Below are positions 1,422-17,266 of a stretch of DNA of 20,711 nucleotides, one piece after another. Both the position numbers and the translations under genes were made by a program. Source of the DNA: a virus. The stretch is from the UHGV virus genome UHGV-0163620. One strand, given 5' to 3'. Each line of letters opens with the position of its first letter. The stretch's first letter is position 1. Under the pieces are notes generated by a model, which was not told the DNA's origin, searched no databases, and was given only the letters and a program-made list of their open reading frames with translations.

Positions 1422-1859
1422 TTAATTCAGGCATTGCGTCTTGATGTATTCCTGCAAGTAGTTAACCTGCGCAGTTATCCTGTCGATCCCACTTCGGAGA
1501 CGGTAATAATTGAGTTCAGCATCTGCTGTAAGTCTTGGGCTTTCTCCATTGCCCATGCCGCTGGCTCCGGTCGTTGACTTTGCACAGGTGGCGGCGACTT
1601 GCAGGCGCTTACGCCCAGCAGAAACATCAGCACGGAGGCTTTCGATAGTCGCGTTAGCATCAGCAAGCTCCTTTGTATATCTGGCATCGAGTTCCGCTAC
1701 GTCACGTTGACGCTTCTGCATATCAGCGATTGTGGATGTGGCTTTATCGCGCTGCTCTTTGTAGGCGATGGCGTTATCACGGTAATGATTAACAGCCCAC
1801 GACAGGCAGACGATGATGCAAATAACCAGAGCGGAGATAATCGCGGTTACCCTGCTCAT
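1422..1859 (-). CDS. Rz: i-spanin Rz (lysis)
   Basis: Begins [26 protein letters not shown], near-identical to lambda Rz N-terminus; ATG at 1859 overlaps endolysin stop (ATGA); ORF-track start at 1871 is a GTG. Confidence 0.85.
1475..1660 (-). CDS. Rz1: o-spanin Rz1 lipoprotein, embedded in +1 frame within Rz
   Basis: Embedded ORF with signal peptide [20 protein letters not shown] (lipobox VSAC) and proline-rich mature part; start taken at internal Met. Confidence 0.7.
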
Positions 1860-2356
1860 TGTTGACCCCACAAACAGACTTCACGCTCAATCTCACGACG
1901 AGTCATCAGGCCTTTCCATTGCTTACCGCCAGCAGATATCCAGCGACGTAGCTGATCACATGCGCCTTTGATATCGCCCTGGTTTATTTTGCGAAGAAGC
2001 GTCGATGTTCTGAAATTACCAGCACCCACGTTGTAAACGAACGAGTAAAGAGCGCCGCGCGTTGTTTCCGGTATATCGACTTTGATGTACGGGTTAATTT
2101 GTCTGGCGACAGTGGCAAGGTCTTTATTCAGGAGAGCTTTGCATTCTGCTTCGGTATACGTTTTACCTAGCATGATGTCTTTTCCAGTGTGTCCATAACA
2201 TACAGTCCATACGCCAACAATATCTTTGTATGGTATGTAACTGACACCTTCCAGACCATCGTTACCACTTGGGCCAGTGATGAGCATAGACGCTATGGCA
2301 ATAGCCCCGCCACCAATAGCAGCTGTGACAGCTTTGCGTAATGATGACTGCATCAT
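1856..2356 (-). CDS. R: SAR endolysin (T4-lysozyme-like, glycoside hydrolase family 24), phage 21 R type
   Basis: N-terminal signal-anchor-release segment [16 protein letters not shown]; catalytic triad spacing E-9-D-6-T in [18 protein letters not shown]; 166 aa. Confidence 0.9.
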
Positions 2357-2625
2357 ATTTCCTTCGGTGCTCTCTTCCCCAGCTCTCCAATAACCATCGC
2401 TGTAGCAGAAAGATTATTGGTATTAGTTTTATCCAATATGTCCTGCAATATCTTCGTGCGCTTCATCTGCTCGCGTTTATTGAGCCGGTATGTAAGCACA
2501 CCGAGGATAATGCTGAACGCGACACCGATAATGAAGCCCCAATCCTGCAATGACAGGCTGGCAAAGAACGCAGCAAGACCAGCGCTACCATAAGATGCAC
2601 TGCTGTATCGTTCATCCATCTTCAT
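2353..2625 (-). CDS. S: class II holin (pinholin-like) with dual-start motif MKM
   Basis: Two predicted TM helices; Met1-Lys-Met3 start as in holin/antiholin pairs; GAGG Shine-Dalgarno upstream; stop overlaps endolysin start. Confidence 0.75.
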
Positions 2626-2720
2626 ATCTCTTACCTCGCAATAGTTGCTGAGGTTTCGGCTTGGAAACTATATGGCGAAAATAACCCCTACCAAAAACGG
2701 CAGGGGAATATATTCTCCAG

Positions 2721-3797
2721 TTACTCAAATAACTTTTTCACTTCATCAACTGTCTGAAGATAACGTTCGCCCTCAATCTCAATACCTATTGCCTGACGTC
2801 CTAACTTCAGCGCAGCTTTAATAGTTGAGCCTGATCCCATAAAGAAATCGGCAACGATATCTCCGGGGCGTGAACTACTCTTTATAATATGTTCCATCAT
2901 CGCTGCAGGTTTTTCACATGGGTGCTTGCCAGGATAATATTGCACAGGAGGAAACTCCCATACATCGGTATAAGGTACATCAGCAGTAACATGAAATGGA
3001 CGGCGTAAATTTTCATACTGAGCCTTCAAATCATCATACTGCTTCTTTACTTCCTCATAATGCAATTTCAGATCGCTATAACGCTTTTCATGTTCTGAAT
3101 AATCAACATTAAAAGGATATGGACACGGGACACCGAGTGAATCTGCCTTCCTGCGAAATAATTCGCATAGTTTATTAAAATCAATTAATGATGGAAGCCG
3201 CCACTGCGAATAAGAAAACCAGTGTGAACACATCTGCTTTCCTGTCGCTGAATTAATGTCTGCGGCTGATATATCTAACTGACGGCGAGCCAGCGAAAAA
3301 GCATCAATTAGTGGAGAAAAAATATTTTTTCTTAAATCTGCACATTTTGAAGCATAACCTGACTGACCTTTAGCATAACCTGACGCGCCGTAATGCTCTG
3401 CAAATAATATTCTTTCAGTAGCAGGAAAATAAGCCCTTAAACTTTCTTTATGACAACCGCGCCACATACCACTGGGTTTAGCCCAAATGATATGGTTCAG
3501 AACATTGAAACGGTCGCGAGTTAATAATTCAATTTTTGACGCAAGGCGAGAGCCGGTAAACATATACAGGCTGCCATTAGGGGCCAATATCCGCCAAAAT
3601 TCTGCCAAAAATTCGTCAATCCACCCCAAAAAGTCAGCATCGCTATCCCACTGGTTATCCCATGCGTTAGCCTTTACGCCGAAGTATGGTGGGTCTGTTG
3701 CAATCAAATTGACCGAGTTATCAGGGATGGTTTTGATAAATTGCAGAGAATCTGCGCAAACGAGTTGTGCGCCATGAATATTAGTGGTTTTGAACAT
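2721..3797 (-). CDS. DNA methyltransferase, beta-class amino-methyltransferase (N6-adenine or N4-cytosine), orphan
   Basis: DPPY catalytic motif near N-terminus (LIATDPPYF) followed by C-terminal AdoMet motif FxGxG (DFFMGSGST); start set at second Met (3797) by family N-terminus pattern, alternative ATG at 3842. Confidence 0.8.
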   Translation of the reverse strand: MFKTTNIHGAQLVCADSLQFIKTIPDNSVNLIATDPPYFGVKANAWDNQWDSDADFLGWIDEFLAEFWRILAPNGSLYMFTGSRLASKIELLTRDRFNVLNHIIWAKPSGMWRGCHKESLRAYFPATERILFAEHYGASGYAKGQSGYASKCADLRKNIFSPLIDAFSLARRQLDISAADINSATGKQMCSHWFSYSQWRLPSLIDFNKLCELFRRKADSLGVPCPYPFNVDYSEHEKRYSDLKLHYEEVKKQYDDLKAQYENLRRPFHVTADVPYTDVWEFPPVQYYPGKHPCEKPAAMMEHIIKSSSRPGDIVADFFMGSGSTIKAALKLGRQAIGIEIEGERYLQTVDEVKKLFE

Positions 3798-3932
3798 AGC
3801 TATTATTTTTTTGCCTGGGTAAGCTAACCCGGCGATGCGCATCGCGGGTGGGCTTTAGGTTCAGCCTATAGCTCTGGCATGGGTTGACCGCAGGACAAGC
3901 TGCAACTTGTCCTGCGCCCACTTTTCAGGCAC

Positions 3933-3954
3933 AAAAAAACCGCCATAAAGGCGG
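3933..3954 (-). terminator. intrinsic terminator in late-operon leader (tR'-like)
   Basis: On minus strand: 5-bp GC stem CCGCC/GGCGG (3940-3954), 5-nt loop, followed by a run of seven U (plus-strand A run 3933-3939). Confidence 0.6.
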
Positions 3955-3993
3955 CTTGTTGGCTGTTGGGTACAAAAAACCCAACTTAACAAA

Positions 3994-4022
3994 ACAATAA
4001 CTAAAAACCGTCATTTTGCCAA
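3994..4022 (-). promoter_or_regulatory. candidate late promoter (PR'-like)
   Basis: Minus-strand -35 TTGGCA (4022-4017), 16-17 nt spacer, -10 TTATTG/TATTGT; sits about 35-50 nt upstream of the leader terminator; judged by eye only. Confidence 0.3.
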
Positions 4023-4042
4023 GCTTTTTCGTTTTTGTGCTG

Positions 4043-4058
4043 TGCGACCGTGGTCGCA
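4043..4058. other. sopC-like 16-bp inverted repeat TGCGACCGTGGTCGCA, copy 2 (extends to a 24-bp palindrome 4039-4062)
   Basis: Exact reverse complement of copy 1; lies about 21 bp upstream of the candidate late promoter -35. Confidence 0.6.
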
Positions 4059-4064
4059 CAGCTT

Positions 4065-4292
4065 TTAGAAAGTTGCCTGCTTATATTCATCGGTCAAAGA
4101 ATATCGACCAGATCCGCTACGCTTTGCAACCCCAAAACAGATCATCTGTTCGATGATAAATTCAACGGCAGCTTGACTCAAAAAACAGGCTTCGCTTAAC
4201 TCTTTCAGGGAAATGCGTGGGTATCCACGCATAACACATTCCACACTCAGGGCCGCTTCAGTCATATTTCCACGAATTTCATTAATATTCAT
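4065..4292 (-). CDS. small hypothetical protein, 75 aa, possible winged-helix DNA-binding fold
   Basis: ORF with GAGAGG Shine-Dalgarno before the ATG at 4292; helix-turn-helix-like segment; function not recognised. Confidence 0.5.
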   Translation of the reverse strand: MNINEIRGNMTEAALSVECVMRGYPRISLKELSEACFLSQAAVEFIIEQMICFGVAKRSGSGRYSLTDEYKQATF

Positions 4293-4305
4293 AACGCCTC
4301 TCTAA

Positions 4306-4527
4306 TCAATCTTGAAACTGGAAATCAACATCAGCCATAAAGCGGTTCAACTCAGCCAGTTTTGGCCCCATAGTCCCAACTAAGCGACCAGCCAGTCGGT
4401 CTGTTAGGTTGGTACTGTTGAAACCATATTCCTTTTCGAAACGTTCAACCTTCTGCCACAACTCATACAGTTCGTTAGCTATCTCCGCAACGTCGTCGCG
4501 CATTTTTTCGTTACCTTGATAATTCAT
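4306..4527 (-). CDS. small hypothetical protein, 73 aa
   Basis: Start moved to the ATG at 4527, which has a GGAGG Shine-Dalgarno (rc of 4533-4537) 5 nt upstream. Confidence 0.5.
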   Translation of the reverse strand: MNYQGNEKMRDDVAEIANELYELWQKVERFEKEYGFNSTNLTDRLAGRLVGTMGPKLAELNRFMADVDFQFQD

Positions 4528-4692
4528 AATATCCTCCAAATTCATATAGTTAGTGGGTTATTACCCCTCAATGACACGAACTGTAACTCTGCCAAACGAA
4601 CACATCCAGTGTTATTTTTCGCTTTTTAGTGAAATTTTTAATTTGCGTTGTTTTCTTGTTTTGGTGTATTTTATGGATATGGAGGCTATAAT

Positions 4693-5004
4693 ATGTTTAA
4701 CGTGATAACCCACCCTGCAGCACTGGATGAACTGCTTGAACTACCAGATGATTTGCGAGGTCGCATGACCAGATTAATTGAGCGACTGGAGAAAGAAGGC
4801 AACAAACTGAAGATGCCCCATAGCCGTGTAATAGGTGGAGGGCTTTTTGAACTACGAGTAGGGGATAAAAACATCGCAAGAACGCTGTACGCCTACGCGA
4901 CTGGTAACGAAATTTATCTATTGCATGCATTTGTAAAAAAGACACAGAAAACACCGGTGAAGGCTATCGAAATCGCCAGAACTCGCCTGAAGGAGATGAA
5001 CTGA
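4693..5004 (+). CDS. RelE/ParE-superfamily toxin, HigB-2 / Gp49-like (DUF891)
   Basis: About 103 aa with family-typical fold signature; toxin-first order; GGAGG 7 nt upstream of the ATG at 4693; stop overlaps the next start (TGATG). Confidence 0.7.
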   Translation: MFNVITHPAALDELLELPDDLRGRMTRLIERLEKEGNKLKMPHSRVIGGGLFELRVGDKNIARTLYAYATGNEIYLLHAFVKKTQKTPVKAIEIARTRLKEMN

Positions 5005-5291
5005 TGAAAGCGAAAGGCATCCCGTTTAACGAAGTAAAAGAAAAACTCCTCAACACTCCAGAAGCCGTCAAAGGATATGAAGAGGCCGACAAAGAGCTGG
5101 AGATGGTCGAAATGTTATACGAAATGAGGGAAAGAGCAGGTTTAACGAAATCAGCTCTGGCTGAACGAATGGGGTTGCGACCGTCAGCCATCAGCCGCCT
5201 GGAAAGCAATCCTTTAGGGGCAAGTATGAAAACTTTGGCTAAATATGCTCATGCCTGCGGCGCAACCATCGATATTCGCGCTGTTTATTAA
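5004..5291 (+). CDS. HTH XRE-family antitoxin (HigA-2-like)
   Basis: 95 aa with C-terminal helix-turn-helix; translationally coupled to the upstream toxin. Confidence 0.7.
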   Translation: MKAKGIPFNEVKEKLLNTPEAVKGYEEADKELEMVEMLYEMRERAGLTKSALAERMGLRPSAISRLESNPLGASMKTLAKYAHACGATIDIRAVY

Positions 5292-9230: not shown

Positions 9231-9531
9231 TTTCTTGTGCGACCACGGTCGCACCCTCTCTGATTTCCAAGTAACGCTTAATCCAAAGATTTTCTATATG
9301 CTTATTACCTGGCTGATTTGATAAATACCAATCGGCAATTACAGACTGCTTATTACTATCTGGTCGTGTCCTGTAACCACAAGTTGGACACCAGATAACA
9401 TATTCATTTCTTACCCCCGAATACCTTAATTCTGGCTTCGACGGTTTCCTGAACATAACTTGTTTACAAAGACAGAATGGCACTTCCTGCCCGATGGCGT
9501 TTGATGATTTCACTGCGCTTCTCCGCCGCAT
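9211..9531 (-). CDS. zinc-ribbon protein, possibly Lar-like restriction alleviation family (tentative)
   Basis: CxC ... CxxC pattern (VPFCLCK ... WCPTCGYRTRP ... ADWYLSN) loosely resembling Lar/RalR small proteins as recalled from memory. Confidence 0.4.
   Translation of the reverse strand: MRRRSAVKSSNAIGQEVPFCLCKQVMFRKPSKPELRYSGVRNEYVIWCPTCGYRTRPDSNKQSVIADWYLSNQPGNKHIENLWIKRYLEIREGATVVAQENENNAI
9238..9253. other. sopC-like 16-bp inverted repeat TGCGACCACGGTCGCA, copy 3
   Basis: Identical to copy 1; 8 bp upstream of the ATG at 9230 and inside the 3' end of ORF 9211..9531. Confidence 0.6.
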
Positions 9532-10174
9532 TTAATAATGCAGTTCGATTTAAGCTCAGACATCGCGACTTAATTAAAAGCCAGCGTTCTTTATAATCTT
9601 GTCTCCAGCTATCAATAGATATATTCAGTAGAAAACTCAGATGCCTGTCCTGTTCTCTCTCATCAACTGCCTCAGCACACGTAAGTTCTGATTTAACCTG
9701 TTGTGCCGCGTAATAAATCAATTTCCGCATGGCTTTTTTCGTGGAGGCCTTCATTTTTTTAAAGCCGCCCCCCGAATGAGCAACCAGAAAATCAAGCCAT
9801 AACCACTGACAAACAATCACATCATTGTTGTAATCAGGCTTGCATCCGTAGCAATAATAAAGCCAGGCTGATTCCTCGTTATTCAACTGACCAATAGCCC
9901 TGCGCCAGCTGGCGCTCTGAAAATCAATATCAGTGAGCAACATTGATGATTGTTTAAATGTTTTCCCCTGGTGGAATCTAACCGGCTCAGCAGGAACGGA
10001 CACTTCGTATGAGTTATCATCCCCCACACTGATTGACCGGACTGGTTTATTGTTAAACCGTCCTGATCTACCGAGACGCATCTGCTCAAGCTGGACCTCC
10101 AGAATGCCACGCTGGCGATAATGAACATCAGCCAATGCCGTAGAGACGCAGCTGCGTATATACTCAAGCTCCAC
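9464..10174 (-). CDS. hypothetical protein, 236 aa, in the position of a Q-like late regulator (function unproven)
   Basis: Long ORF immediately downstream of the cro-like gene; N15 immB is recalled as cB-cro-Q; no antiterminator motif recognised; GTG start overlaps the cro-like stop. Confidence 0.45.
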   Translation of the reverse strand: MELEYIRSCVSTALADVHYRQRGILEVQLEQMRLGRSGRFNNKPVRSISVGDDNSYEVSVPAEPVRFHQGKTFKQSSMLLTDIDFQSASWRRAIGQLNNEESAWLYYCYGCKPDYNNDVIVCQWLWLDFLVAHSGGGFKKMKASTKKAMRKLIYYAAQQVKSELTCAEAVDEREQDRHLSFLLNISIDSWRQDYKERWLLIKSRCLSLNRTALLNAAEKRSEIIKRHRAGSAILSL

Positions 10175-11318: not shown

Positions 11319-14300
11319 ATGACATTAAACGATTTCTATGCGGATCGCTTTGGCAGCGATCCGTTCTCGCTAATTGAAGCAGCACGGGATGAACTAACCG
11401 AGCTGGCACAGATGGCTGGTATCAACTGGCCTGCCTGTTCCGACAACATCCAACTCAACCCTCGCGGGGGGGTTGAGCGTTACTCTTCATACAATAAAAC
11501 ATCTCCAGAAGCTCTCGAAAAGAGCCTGAAAGGACGCGTAGAAATTTACTCCAGGCTGGAACACAGCAAAGGGATTGATTACCCGTTCATTAACTTCGTC
11601 CATAAAGGCAGCGATGCTGGCTCATGGAGCGGTTTCTCCTTCCTGTTTTCTGAATATCGCCGTGAGCAACAACGGAATAATGCGACCGTGGTCGCACAAC
11701 CGGAAGAAGAACGGGAAAGAATAGAACGTCAGGCCGAAGCACGTCGTCGCCGTGAAGAACAAAAACGAATTAATGACCTGAAAAACAACCAAATGGACCA
11801 TGAACGTTTGCTGGGATGGCTGGCATTCCACAGCGCGTGGGAACATGCTCCGGCTGAAGACGGCTCATGGCCATATGCGATTAAAAAAGGTATTCGTGAC
11901 GTTTTTAGTTCATGTGATGTGCGTCGCGTGACCAGTCACGACAGTGCGAAATGGAGCCGGGGGTCAACCACATATATGGCTATCCCTCTGGCTCACCTGG
12001 ACGGTCGTTATGATGGTCGTATTGTGGGTTGGCAGCGAATCGACAAACAAGGTGGGAAATACCAGACCAGCGCAGTAACCAGCGGCGATTTCGTCGGTGC
12101 CTGCTTTGTTATCGGTGAGCTGAAAGGGGCGCAAAACATCGCTGTTACAGAAGGTTTTGCTACTGGTGCATCCATCTGGCTTGCCACGAAAAAAGATAAA
12201 CGCTTTGACGCTGTGGTTGTCGCTGTATCCGCTAACAACATGGTTCATGTTGTGGAACAACTGGTAAACATGTACCCGGCGGCAAAAATCACCTGCGCAC
12301 TGGATAATGACCGGAAATCTGCCACAGAAGGAAAAGGGAATACCGGCCTGCGGACTGGCTATGAAATCTTATCGAAATTCAACGATGTCCGCTGCGTCTA
12401 CCCAACTTTTGAAGACGATCCGCAAATGGAGTGCAGTGACTTCAACGACCTGCACAAACTACGTGGACTTCGTGAAACAGCACGTCAACTATTTGCAACA
12501 GCAAACCGCCTGAAAACCGGCACTGATTTGCTATCTCTGACGCTCAACCGCCTGAAGACAATTAAGCGGGATAACCGTCGTACTTTTGCCAAAGAGCTGC
12601 TGAGAGCGGTGGATATTGGCATGCTAACCTGTCCGGTTCCTAACAGTCCGTCAGATTTATTTAACATGTTCTGCATCGTTCTGCGTGAAATGGGACTGGA
12701 AAATATCTATCGTGCTACGGTAAAAGACCACATTGCCCGTCGCCTGAATAAAAAGTGCCGTATTGCCCAGGCTCCGCGCTCTTTCAGCGAACGCATAACT
12801 GATCCCAATAAACGACCTCAACATATCACCTATAAGCGTTTTGAAACTTCGGTAATGACCGATGATGTCCTGAAGTACGTGCAATCACTACAGGGGATAG
12901 TCATCGTCCGTGCTGGTATGGGTTCCGGCAAATCTACTGGATTGTTACGACCGTTAATGCATAGCTCAGAACGTGGTATCTCTGTTGCTCACCGTGTCTC
13001 CCTTATTGGTGGCCTGTGGGAAATGATGACAGAAGGAAAAGGTGTAAAAGCCGATATCCTGCACTATCAGGATCCTGGCTATCAGGAAATGGCTCCATAC
13101 GCCAGTAAACTGACCATCTGCATAAACTCGATTGTTAAAAACTGCTGGCAACCGTTGATGCGCCAGCACGACTATTTTGGCTTTGACGAGGCCACACAAG
13201 GGCTACGTGCCGTTCTTTCCGGTCGGGCTATGGAAAACCCGGTGGCTGTATTCAATACGCTAATTGACGCGCTGGCCAGAACGGAACAACACCCAATCAT
13301 GGTGGATGCTGATGCGAACGATCTGCTGGTTGACCTGGCTGAACTGGCTATGAAACGCCGTGAAGAACTAGGTTTACCGGCATGGCTGCAGATCCACGTA
13401 ATTGAATTACCTGTTGATGTTCGCAACCGCGAAACAGGTGAGCCAATCCGGGTTTTTTATACAGAAAAAGATCGCATCATGACCGAGGTGGTGAAAGCTG
13501 TATCGGATGGCGAAAAAATTATGTTGGCCACCGACAGCTCCACCTTTGCAGAAGATGTGACCGCCACCCTGAGAATGCATTTCCCTGGCAAGAAATTTCT
13601 GTGCGTAAACCAGAAAAGCAAACAGGATGAAGAAGTCGATGCCTTTACCAGCCAGCCAAAAGTAATGGTGATGAAATACGATGGACTGATCTACAGCCCG
13701 TCGATTTCCTCCGGGGTGTCATTTGAGAAAAAACATTTTGACCGTCATTTCGGCATGTTCTGCGGTGAAGTTGTGCCCAGCGACGCAGTGCAAATGCTAC
13801 GCCGCGACCGTACAGCAAAAGAATTTATTATTGGCTTTGATAAAGCCCGTGCAAAACGCGAGACTGATCCGCAAAAAATAGAACGTGCATTCGCCCAGGC
13901 ATTACTTGCTACCGCAGGCATGAACGGTGAACTGACGGATGTCATTTTCGATGGCGACCGTATATCAATGGGGGTAGCCAATACCGACTTTACCAGGATG
14001 AAAATTAAAGCAGCCGCAATTGAAGCGTCTGCGCGTAACGACTACGCCAGCAACATGATCTGCATCATGCACAGCGACGGTTATAAGGTATCACCATTAG
14101 CTACCGATTATGCCGCGAACGATTTTGGTAAAGAGCTGCGCAAAGAAGCGCGGGATATTGTGTGGGAACAGACGCTGGATCTGCACCTCAATACAGAGAC
14201 ACCAGAAGAATCAGAGCGTGAAGAACTACTAAAAAAACGTGCGCTAACGCTTGAAGAACAGGCAAAACTGGTCCGCTGGGATATTGAGAACGAACTGAAA

Positions 14301-17017: not shown

Positions 17018-17078
17018 CACCTCGCTGCGGTAAATCCCGCAGTCGGGACTTCGCAATCCTGGCAAAACGAAGCGCACA

Positions 17079-17100
17079 ACACGCGCCAGCGTGTTTTTTT
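17079..17100 (+). terminator. intrinsic terminator/attenuator in the immA-like leader
   Basis: 6-bp stem ACACGC/GCGTGT with 4-nt loop followed by seven T (17094-17100); about 77 nt downstream of the candidate start site. Confidence 0.55.
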
Positions 17101-17131
17101 GTGTGTACAGACCTGCGCATATCCGAATTAT

Positions 17132-17211
17132 GGTGGCTCAGGTGGGGCTGACTTCGGTCGGGCCGGTTTCTTCGTTTACCGGTATTGCGAACCCCGCCTG
17201 GGCTACCACCA
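17132..17211 (+). ncRNA. tRNA-like structured RNA, candidate c4/CA-type antisense regulator (RNase P substrate-like)
   Basis: 5' GGUGGCU pairs with 3' GGCUACC (7 bp, two G-U) followed by ACCA; internal GAC-UUCG-GUC and CCGGU-N10-ACCGG stem-loops; two blocks complementary to 17221-17240 downstream. Confidence 0.4.
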
Positions 17212-17266
17212 ATAAAGAGATTCGCAACTCTGGTGGTAGCACGACCAATAAAACGGAGTGCATACC

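Follow-up and report, generated by a model that had tools for sequence, protein, structure and literature searches.

A probable N15-type late-operon control region and a covarying leader RNA before the methylase gene of a linear plasmid-phage

The switch that turns on the late genes of the linear plasmid-phage N15 is already known. Work by Ravin, Rech and Lane in 2008 is said to have identified p52 as the N15 late promoter and a Q analogue as the antiterminator acting there, with terminator sequences between p52 and the first open reading frame (ORF) and two intrinsic terminator-like sequences downstream of the promoter. Mutating either of two inverted repeats (IR), IR2 near Q or IR3 near p52, reportedly delays lysis, and these two SopB sites are said to help late expression, probably by SopB bridging. 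Here we analyse the corresponding region of UHGV virus genome UHGV-0163620, a stretch of 20,711 nucleotides (nt) referred to throughout as the window, and we consider it very probable on sequence grounds that it controls the late operon of an N15-like linear plasmid-phage, most likely in the same way as in N15.

The window belongs to Ravinvirus and derives from an N15-like linear plasmid-phage. Its proteins include a protelomerase, a 1327-amino-acid (aa) RepA-like primase, a cI-like repressor and a P22-Cro-like protein, a combination that identifies an N15-like linear plasmid-prophage. Across 801 bases around the late region, identity is 99.4% to Escherichia phages YDC107_1 (genus Ravinvirus) and PhiR46_1, 77% to an Enterobacter Ravinvirus and 75% to phage N15. 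On the minus strand the order is palindrome, promoter, terminator, hairpin, then the genes for a methylase (PF01555), holin, lysozyme and Rz, and the intergenic region aligns colinearly and over its full length with N15, phiKO2, KpLi5, PY54 and other phages. The initial annotation of this DNA, made from the letters alone, had proposed a late promoter and promoter-proximal terminator under Q-type control beside a centromere-like site, and the N15 and phiKO2 records annotate a late promoter, a terminator and a partition site there.

Q protein, terminators and late promoter

A Q cassette, as defined previously (PMC9388147), comprises a protein from one of three Q families, a Q gene adjoining the regulated unit, a sigma-70 promoter with a sigma-dependent pause element, a Q-binding element beside the pause element, and an intrinsic terminator between promoter and late genes that is read through when Q is present. 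The 236-aa ORF upstream of the late region matches Pfam PF06323 across residues 2–229 (E=4e-84, 282 bits); this is the Q82 family, one of the three (PMC9388147), and by sequence the protein is a strong member of it. The initial annotation had named this ORF as the Q candidate by position while recognising no motif in it; the family match proves to be clear. Its gene does not adjoin the regulated unit, as 5.4 kb separate the Q stop codon (9464) from the -35 hexamer (4022), a peculiarity already known from N15. A Q82-type Q was likewise located by tblastn upstream of the same leader in 11 of the 11 relatives with enough flanking sequence, at 28–99% identity and 2.3–6.9 kb away. No solved structure of any relative of this Q was found. 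In the PhiR46_1 record (PV340565.1) Q carries the label 'hypothetical protein'.

An intrinsic terminator, T1, is present between the promoter and the late genes. Its stem (3957–3937; 8 pairs, 5 of them G-C) encloses a 5-nt loop and adjoins seven T residues at 3939–3933 (-12.9 kcal/mol, z = -3.3), close to the strong terminator first annotated at 3933–3954 and 35–50 nt into the transcript. T1 occupies about positions 31–58 of the predicted transcript, and a leader RNA terminated there would measure ~55 nt. The homologous hairpin is marked 'putative rho-independent terminator' in N15, a terminator is also given in the phiKO2 record, and both the hairpin and the tail (TTTTTTTGTGCCT) resemble those of tR' in the lambdoid phage SfV. 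At the 5' end of the transcript a further hairpin (Table 1) is predicted in 19 of 19 distinct relatives, its stem having undergone both wobble and compensatory changes (GGG/CCC versus GGC/GCC; AAGCU/AGCUU in relative L014), and the linker between it and the terminator hairpin varies among relatives. Weak Rfam matches over the T1 region (AgrB, ctRNA, isrK, RNAI) were below threshold and terminator-driven, and long-range pairings suggested by single-sequence folds (GCCUG/CAGGC in the N15 type, GCCUUG/CAAGGC in the phiKO2 type) were discarded as not conserved in the family.

A second intrinsic terminator, T2, lies between methylase and holin (9-pair stem, -16.3 kcal/mol, z = -5.1), and terminators are annotated at the homologous position in N15, phiKO2 and SfV. 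With both T1 and T2 ahead of the lysis genes, a Q-modified polymerase would have to pass two terminators. Since the methylase gene is bracketed by the two, it could be expressed at a low level by leakage through T1 with the lysis genes silent.

The initial annotation also drew into the antitermination leader a hairpin with an 11-bp stem at 3889–3916, which could be read as an additional terminator, or a pause signal, belonging to the leader under Q control. It lies inside the leader, 17 nt past T1, and is very stable at -23 kcal/mol. However, no U-tract follows it, the next letters being GGUCAACCC / GGUCAACCCAUGCC, and it is therefore not an intrinsic terminator, whereas the canonical T2 could be the second terminator of N15. 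Moreover, the hairpin co-occurs with four other covarying helices, and it accompanies the methylase gene in lambdoid phages and those of Morganella/Providencia, in which it is preceded by a small ORF and not by a promoter or terminator. A role in the Q switch is thus improbable: the hairpin itself is well supported (z = -5.3), but it belongs to an independent, methylase-linked RNA element, described below.

The case for the late promoter is comparative. Among 21 distinct promoter variants, taken from phages in GenBank and contigs in IMG/VR, the arrangement of -35 hexamer, 17 nt, -10 hexamer, 5 nt, TA(A/T)GTT and GG(G/C) is constant, save for one contig that has lost 1 nt of the 5-nt gap, even though the sequences of the hexamers and spacer vary. 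The candidate promoter first marked at 3994–4022 has its hexamers and spacing kept in these 21 distinct relatives. In the PY54 class the -35 and -10 hexamers are nearer consensus (TTGCAA-17-TATCAT), the N15 GenBank record marks both homologous hexamers as promoter signals (-35 and -10), and the phiKO2 record marks a 'putative late promoter'.

A sigma-dependent pause element combines a -10-like hexamer with a G/C-rich discriminator and, ahead of the pause, A/T-rich sequence (PMC5001585). Such an element, missed by the initial annotation, is predicted directly after the promoter, where TAAGTT-GGG begins 5 nt past the -10 hexamer TATTGT. With a predicted start at ~3987 the element would lie at -1 to +5 and the pause at ~3974–3972 (about +14 to +16, as in lambda). 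For comparison, lambda pR' reads TAAATT-6 nt-AACGAT-GGG-TTAATTCG and SfV pR' reads TAAGAT-6 nt-AACGAT-GGG. The window thus has the sigma-70 promoter and pause element of a Q cassette (PMC9388147) in sequence layout, from which we infer their function, and the position of a -10-like element immediately behind the promoter strengthens the case for Q control.

Several points weigh against control by Q in the manner proposed. Transcription start, pausing and readthrough under Q are all deduced from the sequence and from N15 and lambda. A consensus promoter scan performed no better than chance (4 sites, with 4.1 expected in shuffles), and the credibility of the promoter therefore rests on its conservation. 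The pause element, at about -1 to +5 here, is found ~9–15 nt further downstream in two phages with a Q82-type Q: phage 82 pR' has its -10-like element at +9 to +14 and its pause at +25 (PMC5001585), and a Morganella phage has a -10-like TATGTT ~15 nt past its -10. The loading geometry of this Q may thus differ from the studied Q82 case. Family alignments yielded no conserved candidate for a Q-binding element, and the family shares no conserved sequence between -35 and -10, its Q proteins diverging to 28% identity. Finally, T1 may also serve as terminator of the upstream gp50-gp51 operon.

Taken further, T1 could be merely the gp50-gp51 terminator, the promoter a chance match and the late genes driven from elsewhere, as would fit both the outcome of the promoter scan and the position of T1, 108 nt past the gp51 stop on the same strand. 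We regard this as very unlikely, given that the promoter and pause geometry is kept in so many variants, that the PY54 class moves closer to consensus, that the layout matches pR' of lambda and SfV, and that a promoter is annotated at this place in N15 and phiKO2.

Centromere-type palindromes beside Q and the late promoter

Upstream of the late promoter lies a palindrome with perfect arms of 11 nt each (4039–4049 and 4052–4062) and a 2-nt spacer, of which 4042–4059 matches the N15 IR consensus GTGCGACCnnGGTCGCAC with 0 mismatches. Oligonucleotide sequences of N15 IR1–4 are available from work in which a synthetic N15 centromere was assembled with them (PMC7205306, Table 4), and the window palindrome aligns with the N15 sequence of the IR3 SopB-site oligonucleotide (PMC7205306); the phiKO2 record names the homologous site a 'putative plasmid partitioning site'. 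The window holds four copies (at 11680, 9237, 4042 and 1032) against a chance expectation of 0.00–0.04, at N15-like places: within repA, after Q, before the late promoter and after the lysis genes. In the complete PhiR46_1 genome (46 kb) only five copies occur, all at N15-like positions. ParA and ParB genes lie outside the window but are encoded at the right end of that 99.4%-identical complete genome. The sopC-like palindrome noted initially at 4043–4058 is thus a perfect palindrome that matches N15 IR3 and has a sopC-like core, and we interpret 4039–4062 as a putative SopB (ParB) centromere site.

Because the palindrome begins 2 nt past the gp51 stop and would fold at -20 kcal/mol, it could instead be an RNA hairpin or terminator ending the gp51 message. 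This is highly improbable, as no U-tract follows, identical palindromes lie inside coding regions (repA at 11680–11697 and the ORF after Q), the sequence matches N15 SopB sites that have been used experimentally, and the few copies in the related whole genome keep to N15-like positions.

Comparison with the F plasmid and among relatives resolves two palindrome classes. The F sopC core differs from the window palindrome by one base per arm (GGGACCnnGGTCCC versus GCGACCnnGGTCGC); the 43-bp sopC repeat used for the comparison matched F plasmid NC_002483 at 100% by BLAST. The form GCGACCnnGGTCGC is the N15 type, and GGGACCnnGGTCCC is shared by F and the PY54 type. The distance from palindrome centre to -35 is 28 nt (29 in N15) in the N15 type and 17 nt in the PY54 type, and is constant within each class; spacings were compared at window 4017–4062 and at the homologous loci L006, L068, L084, L182, L192 and L202. 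That the spacing is fixed per class, with the classes one helical turn apart, suggests that ParB/SopB would be bound on a defined face relative to the late promoter.

The second palindrome of interest, at the N15 IR2 position (Table 1), lies near Q. In all 11 relatives with enough flank, one palindrome is found 200–300 bp after Q and one just upstream of the late promoter, and this pair is kept in both palindrome classes. The comparative pattern supports a functional link of the partition sites with late expression.

Taken together, we posit the following sequence of events by analogy with N15 and lambda. Sigma-70 RNA polymerase would start at ~3987 from TTGGCA-17-TATTGT and be held ~15 nt downstream by re-binding of sigma to TAAGTT-GGG. 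Without Q, polymerase would stop at T1 and release the ~55-nt leader RNA. After induction, the Q82-family protein encoded at 9464–10174 would load onto the paused polymerase, which could then read through T1 and T2 into the methylase gene, the lysis genes and ~29 kb of virion genes. SopB bridging of the palindromes beside Q and 28 nt before -35 may bring the Q gene and the late promoter together, as has reportedly been proposed for N15.

That the leader instead encodes a small protein is next to impossible: a frame open from TTG 4022 to TAG 3861 is entered as a 53-aa hypothetical protein, a coding sequence over window 4022–3861 that spans promoter, T1 and hairpin, in the PhiR46_1 record (PV340565), but its start codon is the -35 hexamer, relatives carry indels inside it that are not multiples of three, substitutions across it track base-pairing rather than codons, and no other record examined annotates it.

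A structured RNA before the methylase gene

The hairpin at 3889–3916 (HP2) forms 12–14 pairs and was matched in stability by 0 of 200 shuffles. Its arms differ widely among relatives with complementarity maintained: compensatory changes affect 9 of 11 stem levels among 16 distinct relatives, 91% of positions are paired compared with 61% in shuffles, and in a covariance-model alignment 10 of the 11 pairs have changed on both sides.

HP2 is one helix of a larger RNA element of ~135 nt that always ends at the methylase ATG. The element was traced by searching methylase relatives and inspecting the DNA upstream of them, where a conserved block of 134–142 nt, from ~10 nt before UGGGC to the ATG, recurs in N15-like and other phages. 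In phages that are not N15-like it comes after the stop codon of a small ORF resembling gp51, without an intervening promoter or terminator, and in lambdoid phages the nearest terminator lies upstream of that ORF. A covariance model (R1) built from 8 phiKO2-type sequences finds the element at full length, ending at the methylase ATG, in 42 distinct sequences, and also confirms it in lambdoid SfV, mEp460 and Morganella phage IME1369_02. Further coordinates are L349:1806–1946 (L349 is SfV), L350:1800–1940 and L351:2613–2754. Matches spanning the element and the methylase 5' end, by BLAST only, extend to Providencia, Hafnia, cdt-I and Stx2-converting phages. Some methylase homologs are preceded by a terminator and ribosome site only, without the element.

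In the model alignment 90.9% of cells are paired, compared with 71.9% (standard deviation 0.8) in shuffles, and 20 of 30 pairs have changed on both sides, while sliding the partners lowers pairing to 28–44%; these figures are somewhat inflated, since the alignment is fitted to the model. MAFFT misplaces the hairpin arms between clades, and RNAalifold on such alignments under-calls structure; the covariance-model alignment was therefore used. Abundant G-U pairs indicate an RNA structure specific to the sense strand. A further, loose pattern scan for the 3' half gave mostly chance hits; of the 12 that also carried the 5' block, 11 were real elements directly before a methylase gene and the twelfth was a chance match. 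Against Rfam 15, window 3500–4400 gave nothing relevant up to an E-value of 10, and the loci of N15, phiKO2 and PY54 gave nothing up to 0.1.

Other candidate motifs were set aside. A boxB-like reading of GCCUGAAAAGUGGGC suggested by RNAalifold was rejected, the 5' GCC being absent in the L319, L292 and SfV versions. A collection-wide scan for GGCGGTTTTTTTRTGCCT-N(4-12)-TGGGCGC gave >130 hits with an 11-nt gap in Pseudomonas prophages, which proved to be an unrelated terminator, ribosome site and ATG of a tail (J-like) gene.

These comparisons identify the ~135-nt RNA as a predicted element tied to the methylase gene and separate from the Q switch, and one apparently undescribed so far. Its invariant unpaired blocks are AAAUGGGC, ACCCAUG, AAGGCCCA and AGCCUA, and alternative pairings are possible between UGGGC and ACCCA or GCCCA and between GCCU and an upstream or downstream AGGC; the distal UGGGC:GCCCA pairing is possible in 100% of cases but invariant, and therefore uninformative. 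As to its role, our guess is that it tunes translation or stability of the methylase message. We give about even chances to the proposal that it is an undescribed cis-regulatory motif dedicated to one family of phage N6-adenine DNA methylase genes. Its five covarying helices, together with the constant single-stranded blocks and the alternative pairings, make it conceivable that translation of the methylase is switched in response to a protein or ligand; the most exciting version of such a switch, if true, would be a sensor of the methyl-donor pool.

Table 1. Features of the late region and associated genes, in window coordinates
Feature	Coordinates	Strand	Details and evidence
Palindrome, N15 IR3 ortholog	4039..4062, core 4042-4059	.	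GCTGTGCGACC-AC-GGTCGCACAGC; pattern match, alignment with N15 IR3
Putative late promoter	3994..4022	-	-35 TTGGCA (4022-4017), 17-nt spacer, -10 TATTGT (3999-3994); scan and conservation
Predicted sigma-dependent pause element	3972..3988	-	TAAGTT (3988-3983), GGG (3982-3980), T-rich tract (3979-3972); lambda/SfV layout
5'-terminal transcript hairpin	3965..3985	-	GUUGGGU...ACCCAAC, overlaps pause element; -10.4 kcal/mol, z = -3.6
Intrinsic terminator T1 (tR'-like)	3933..3957	-	AAGCCGCC-UUUAU-GGCGGUUU + U7; fold, N15/phiKO2 annotation
Structured RNA element, ~135 nt	3795..3930	-	ends at methylase ATG (3797-3795); covariance model R1
Hairpin HP2	3889..3916	-	helix of methylase-leader RNA, not terminator; fold and covariation
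RNA element helices	P2 3917-3921/3879-3883; HP2 3889-3916; small hairpin ~3862-3878; P3' 3852-3855/3821-3824; HP3 3828-3848		
DNA N6-adenine methylase, gp52 homolog	2721..3797	-	first late-operon gene; PF01555, E=1e-46
Intrinsic terminator T2	2676..2706 (hairpin 2706-2685)	-	between methylase and holin; fold
Lysis genes	1422..2625	-	holin 2353-2625, lysozyme 1856-2356, Rz 1422-1871; Pfam matches
gp51 homolog, 75 aa	4065..4292	-	small winged-helix protein, upstream neighbour of control region; weak HTH_24 and PCI matches
SopB-type palindrome, N15 IR2 position	9237..9254	.	~210 bp downstream of Q; exact pattern match
Q antiterminator gene, 236 aa	9464..10174	-	Q82 family; Pfam PF06323

The methylase gene most likely starts at ATG 3797, which aligns with the methylase start in all relatives; the in-frame ATG at 3842, taken as the start in the initial annotation, is not conserved. 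The N15 record (AF064539; L002 1987–2221) starts gene 52 at 41621, and the conserved ATG together with tblastn places the start 234 nt upstream (~41387), giving a product of ~360 aa as in relatives. On the other side of the control region, gp51 is found at the same position in the N15-like relatives examined (32–75% identity). It had been put forward as a second candidate regulator of readthrough, and is a conserved small winged-helix protein with no evidence tying it to that function. Lambdoid phages carry a 64–67-aa ORF, close to gp51 in size and likewise just before the methylase leader (L349:1600–1794; L351:2419–2613), with weak winged-helix matches alone. The pairing of gp51 with a methylase recalls the controller-protein-plus-methylase pairing of restriction-modification systems; a nuclease gene is absent.

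Elsewhere in the window, Rfam matches at gathering level were obtained on the plus strand for isrK (17024–17099, 52.8 bits) and C4 antisense RNA (17126–17213, 82.3 bits); 17024–17213 (+) is presumably an N15-type immA anti-immunity region with a small processed RNA. Upstream of gp50 lies a divergently oriented pair of small genes on the plus strand, an HTH_3 protein (5004–5291) and a 118-aa ORF (4648–5004), the counterparts of the genes (gp48, gp49) that are annotated in relatives as a toxin-antitoxin pair of RelE/ParE type. The YDC107_1 record (CP025712.1, 30000–46701) is mirrored at the telomere: protelomerase, repA and other genes each have a second copy in reverse order, probably because the assembly ran through the hairpin end.

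Significance and comparison with known systems

As a switch, the late region is ordinary: the phage-plasmid is confirmed as a very probable user of the N15 late-gene scheme. What is added beyond the known N15 system is the Q family assignment, the predicted pause element with its lambda-like position, and the proposed coupling of Q, ParB sites and promoter. The comparative data provide independent support for partition sites being wired into late-gene control, in that two ParB sites, one following Q and the other at constant spacing ahead of the late promoter, persist through both the divergence of Q to 28% identity and the switch of palindrome class. The combination of a Q82-family protein with a lambda-like pause-element position is of interest as well, since Q82 alone among the Q families lacks a solved loading complex. 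What came as a surprise is the methylase-leader RNA: well supported, covarying and specific to one strand, it is absent from Rfam and occurs in late operons of many temperate phages of enterobacteria, perhaps with toxin-converting ones among them (BLAST matches only). If this RNA controls methylase synthesis, it would offer a new handle on how phages time DNA modification.

The closest system is N15 itself, whose late region is orthologous, colinear DNA at 75% identity with the same order of gp51, palindrome, -35/-10, terminator, methylase and holin, a Q gene ~5–6 kb upstream with an adjoining palindrome, and four dispersed palindromes. It differs in its -10 hexamer (TATCTT, compared with TATTGT in the window) and in hairpin arms that have changed with compensation.

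The lambda Q/pR'/tR' system likewise combines a constitutive-looking sigma-70 promoter, a -10-like element and GGG 5–6 nt past the -10 (PMC9388147, PMC5001585), and a promoter-proximal intrinsic terminator followed by the lysis and morphogenesis operon. In contrast to lambda, whose Q gene adjoins the unit, the Q here comes from the structurally unsolved Q82 family (PF06323) and is encoded 5.4 kb away, the terminator lies at ~+31 to +58 rather than +194, and a ParB-type site flanks the promoter. Phage 82 has a Q of the same family but differs in its pR' element (+9 to +14, pause +25), the element here, at about -1 to +5, being lambda-like. The pR'-tR' region of SfV (L349:1380–1500), which has a lambda-type Q, shares a common layout with window 3930–4022, even to the terminator tail TTTTTTTGTGCCT, and this likeness suggests that the N15-like arrangement may have arisen when a lambdoid pR'-tR' module was moved from directly behind Q to a place immediately ahead of the methylase leader.

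The predicted ~55-nt leader, with its 5' hairpin, terminator and U-run, resembles StxS and other short tR'-terminated RNAs of lambdoid prophages in being a short, constitutively terminated leader RNA, and would be a by-product of the same control logic (PMC7547250); no sign of Hfq binding or of a conserved seed emerged for it, and the linker joining its two hairpins is variable. With sopC of the F plasmid the palindrome shares its core save for one base per arm, and PY54-class relatives have the F-type core at the same place; whereas F carries tandem 43-bp repeats, the sites here are single and dispersed, one of them at a fixed distance from the promoter.

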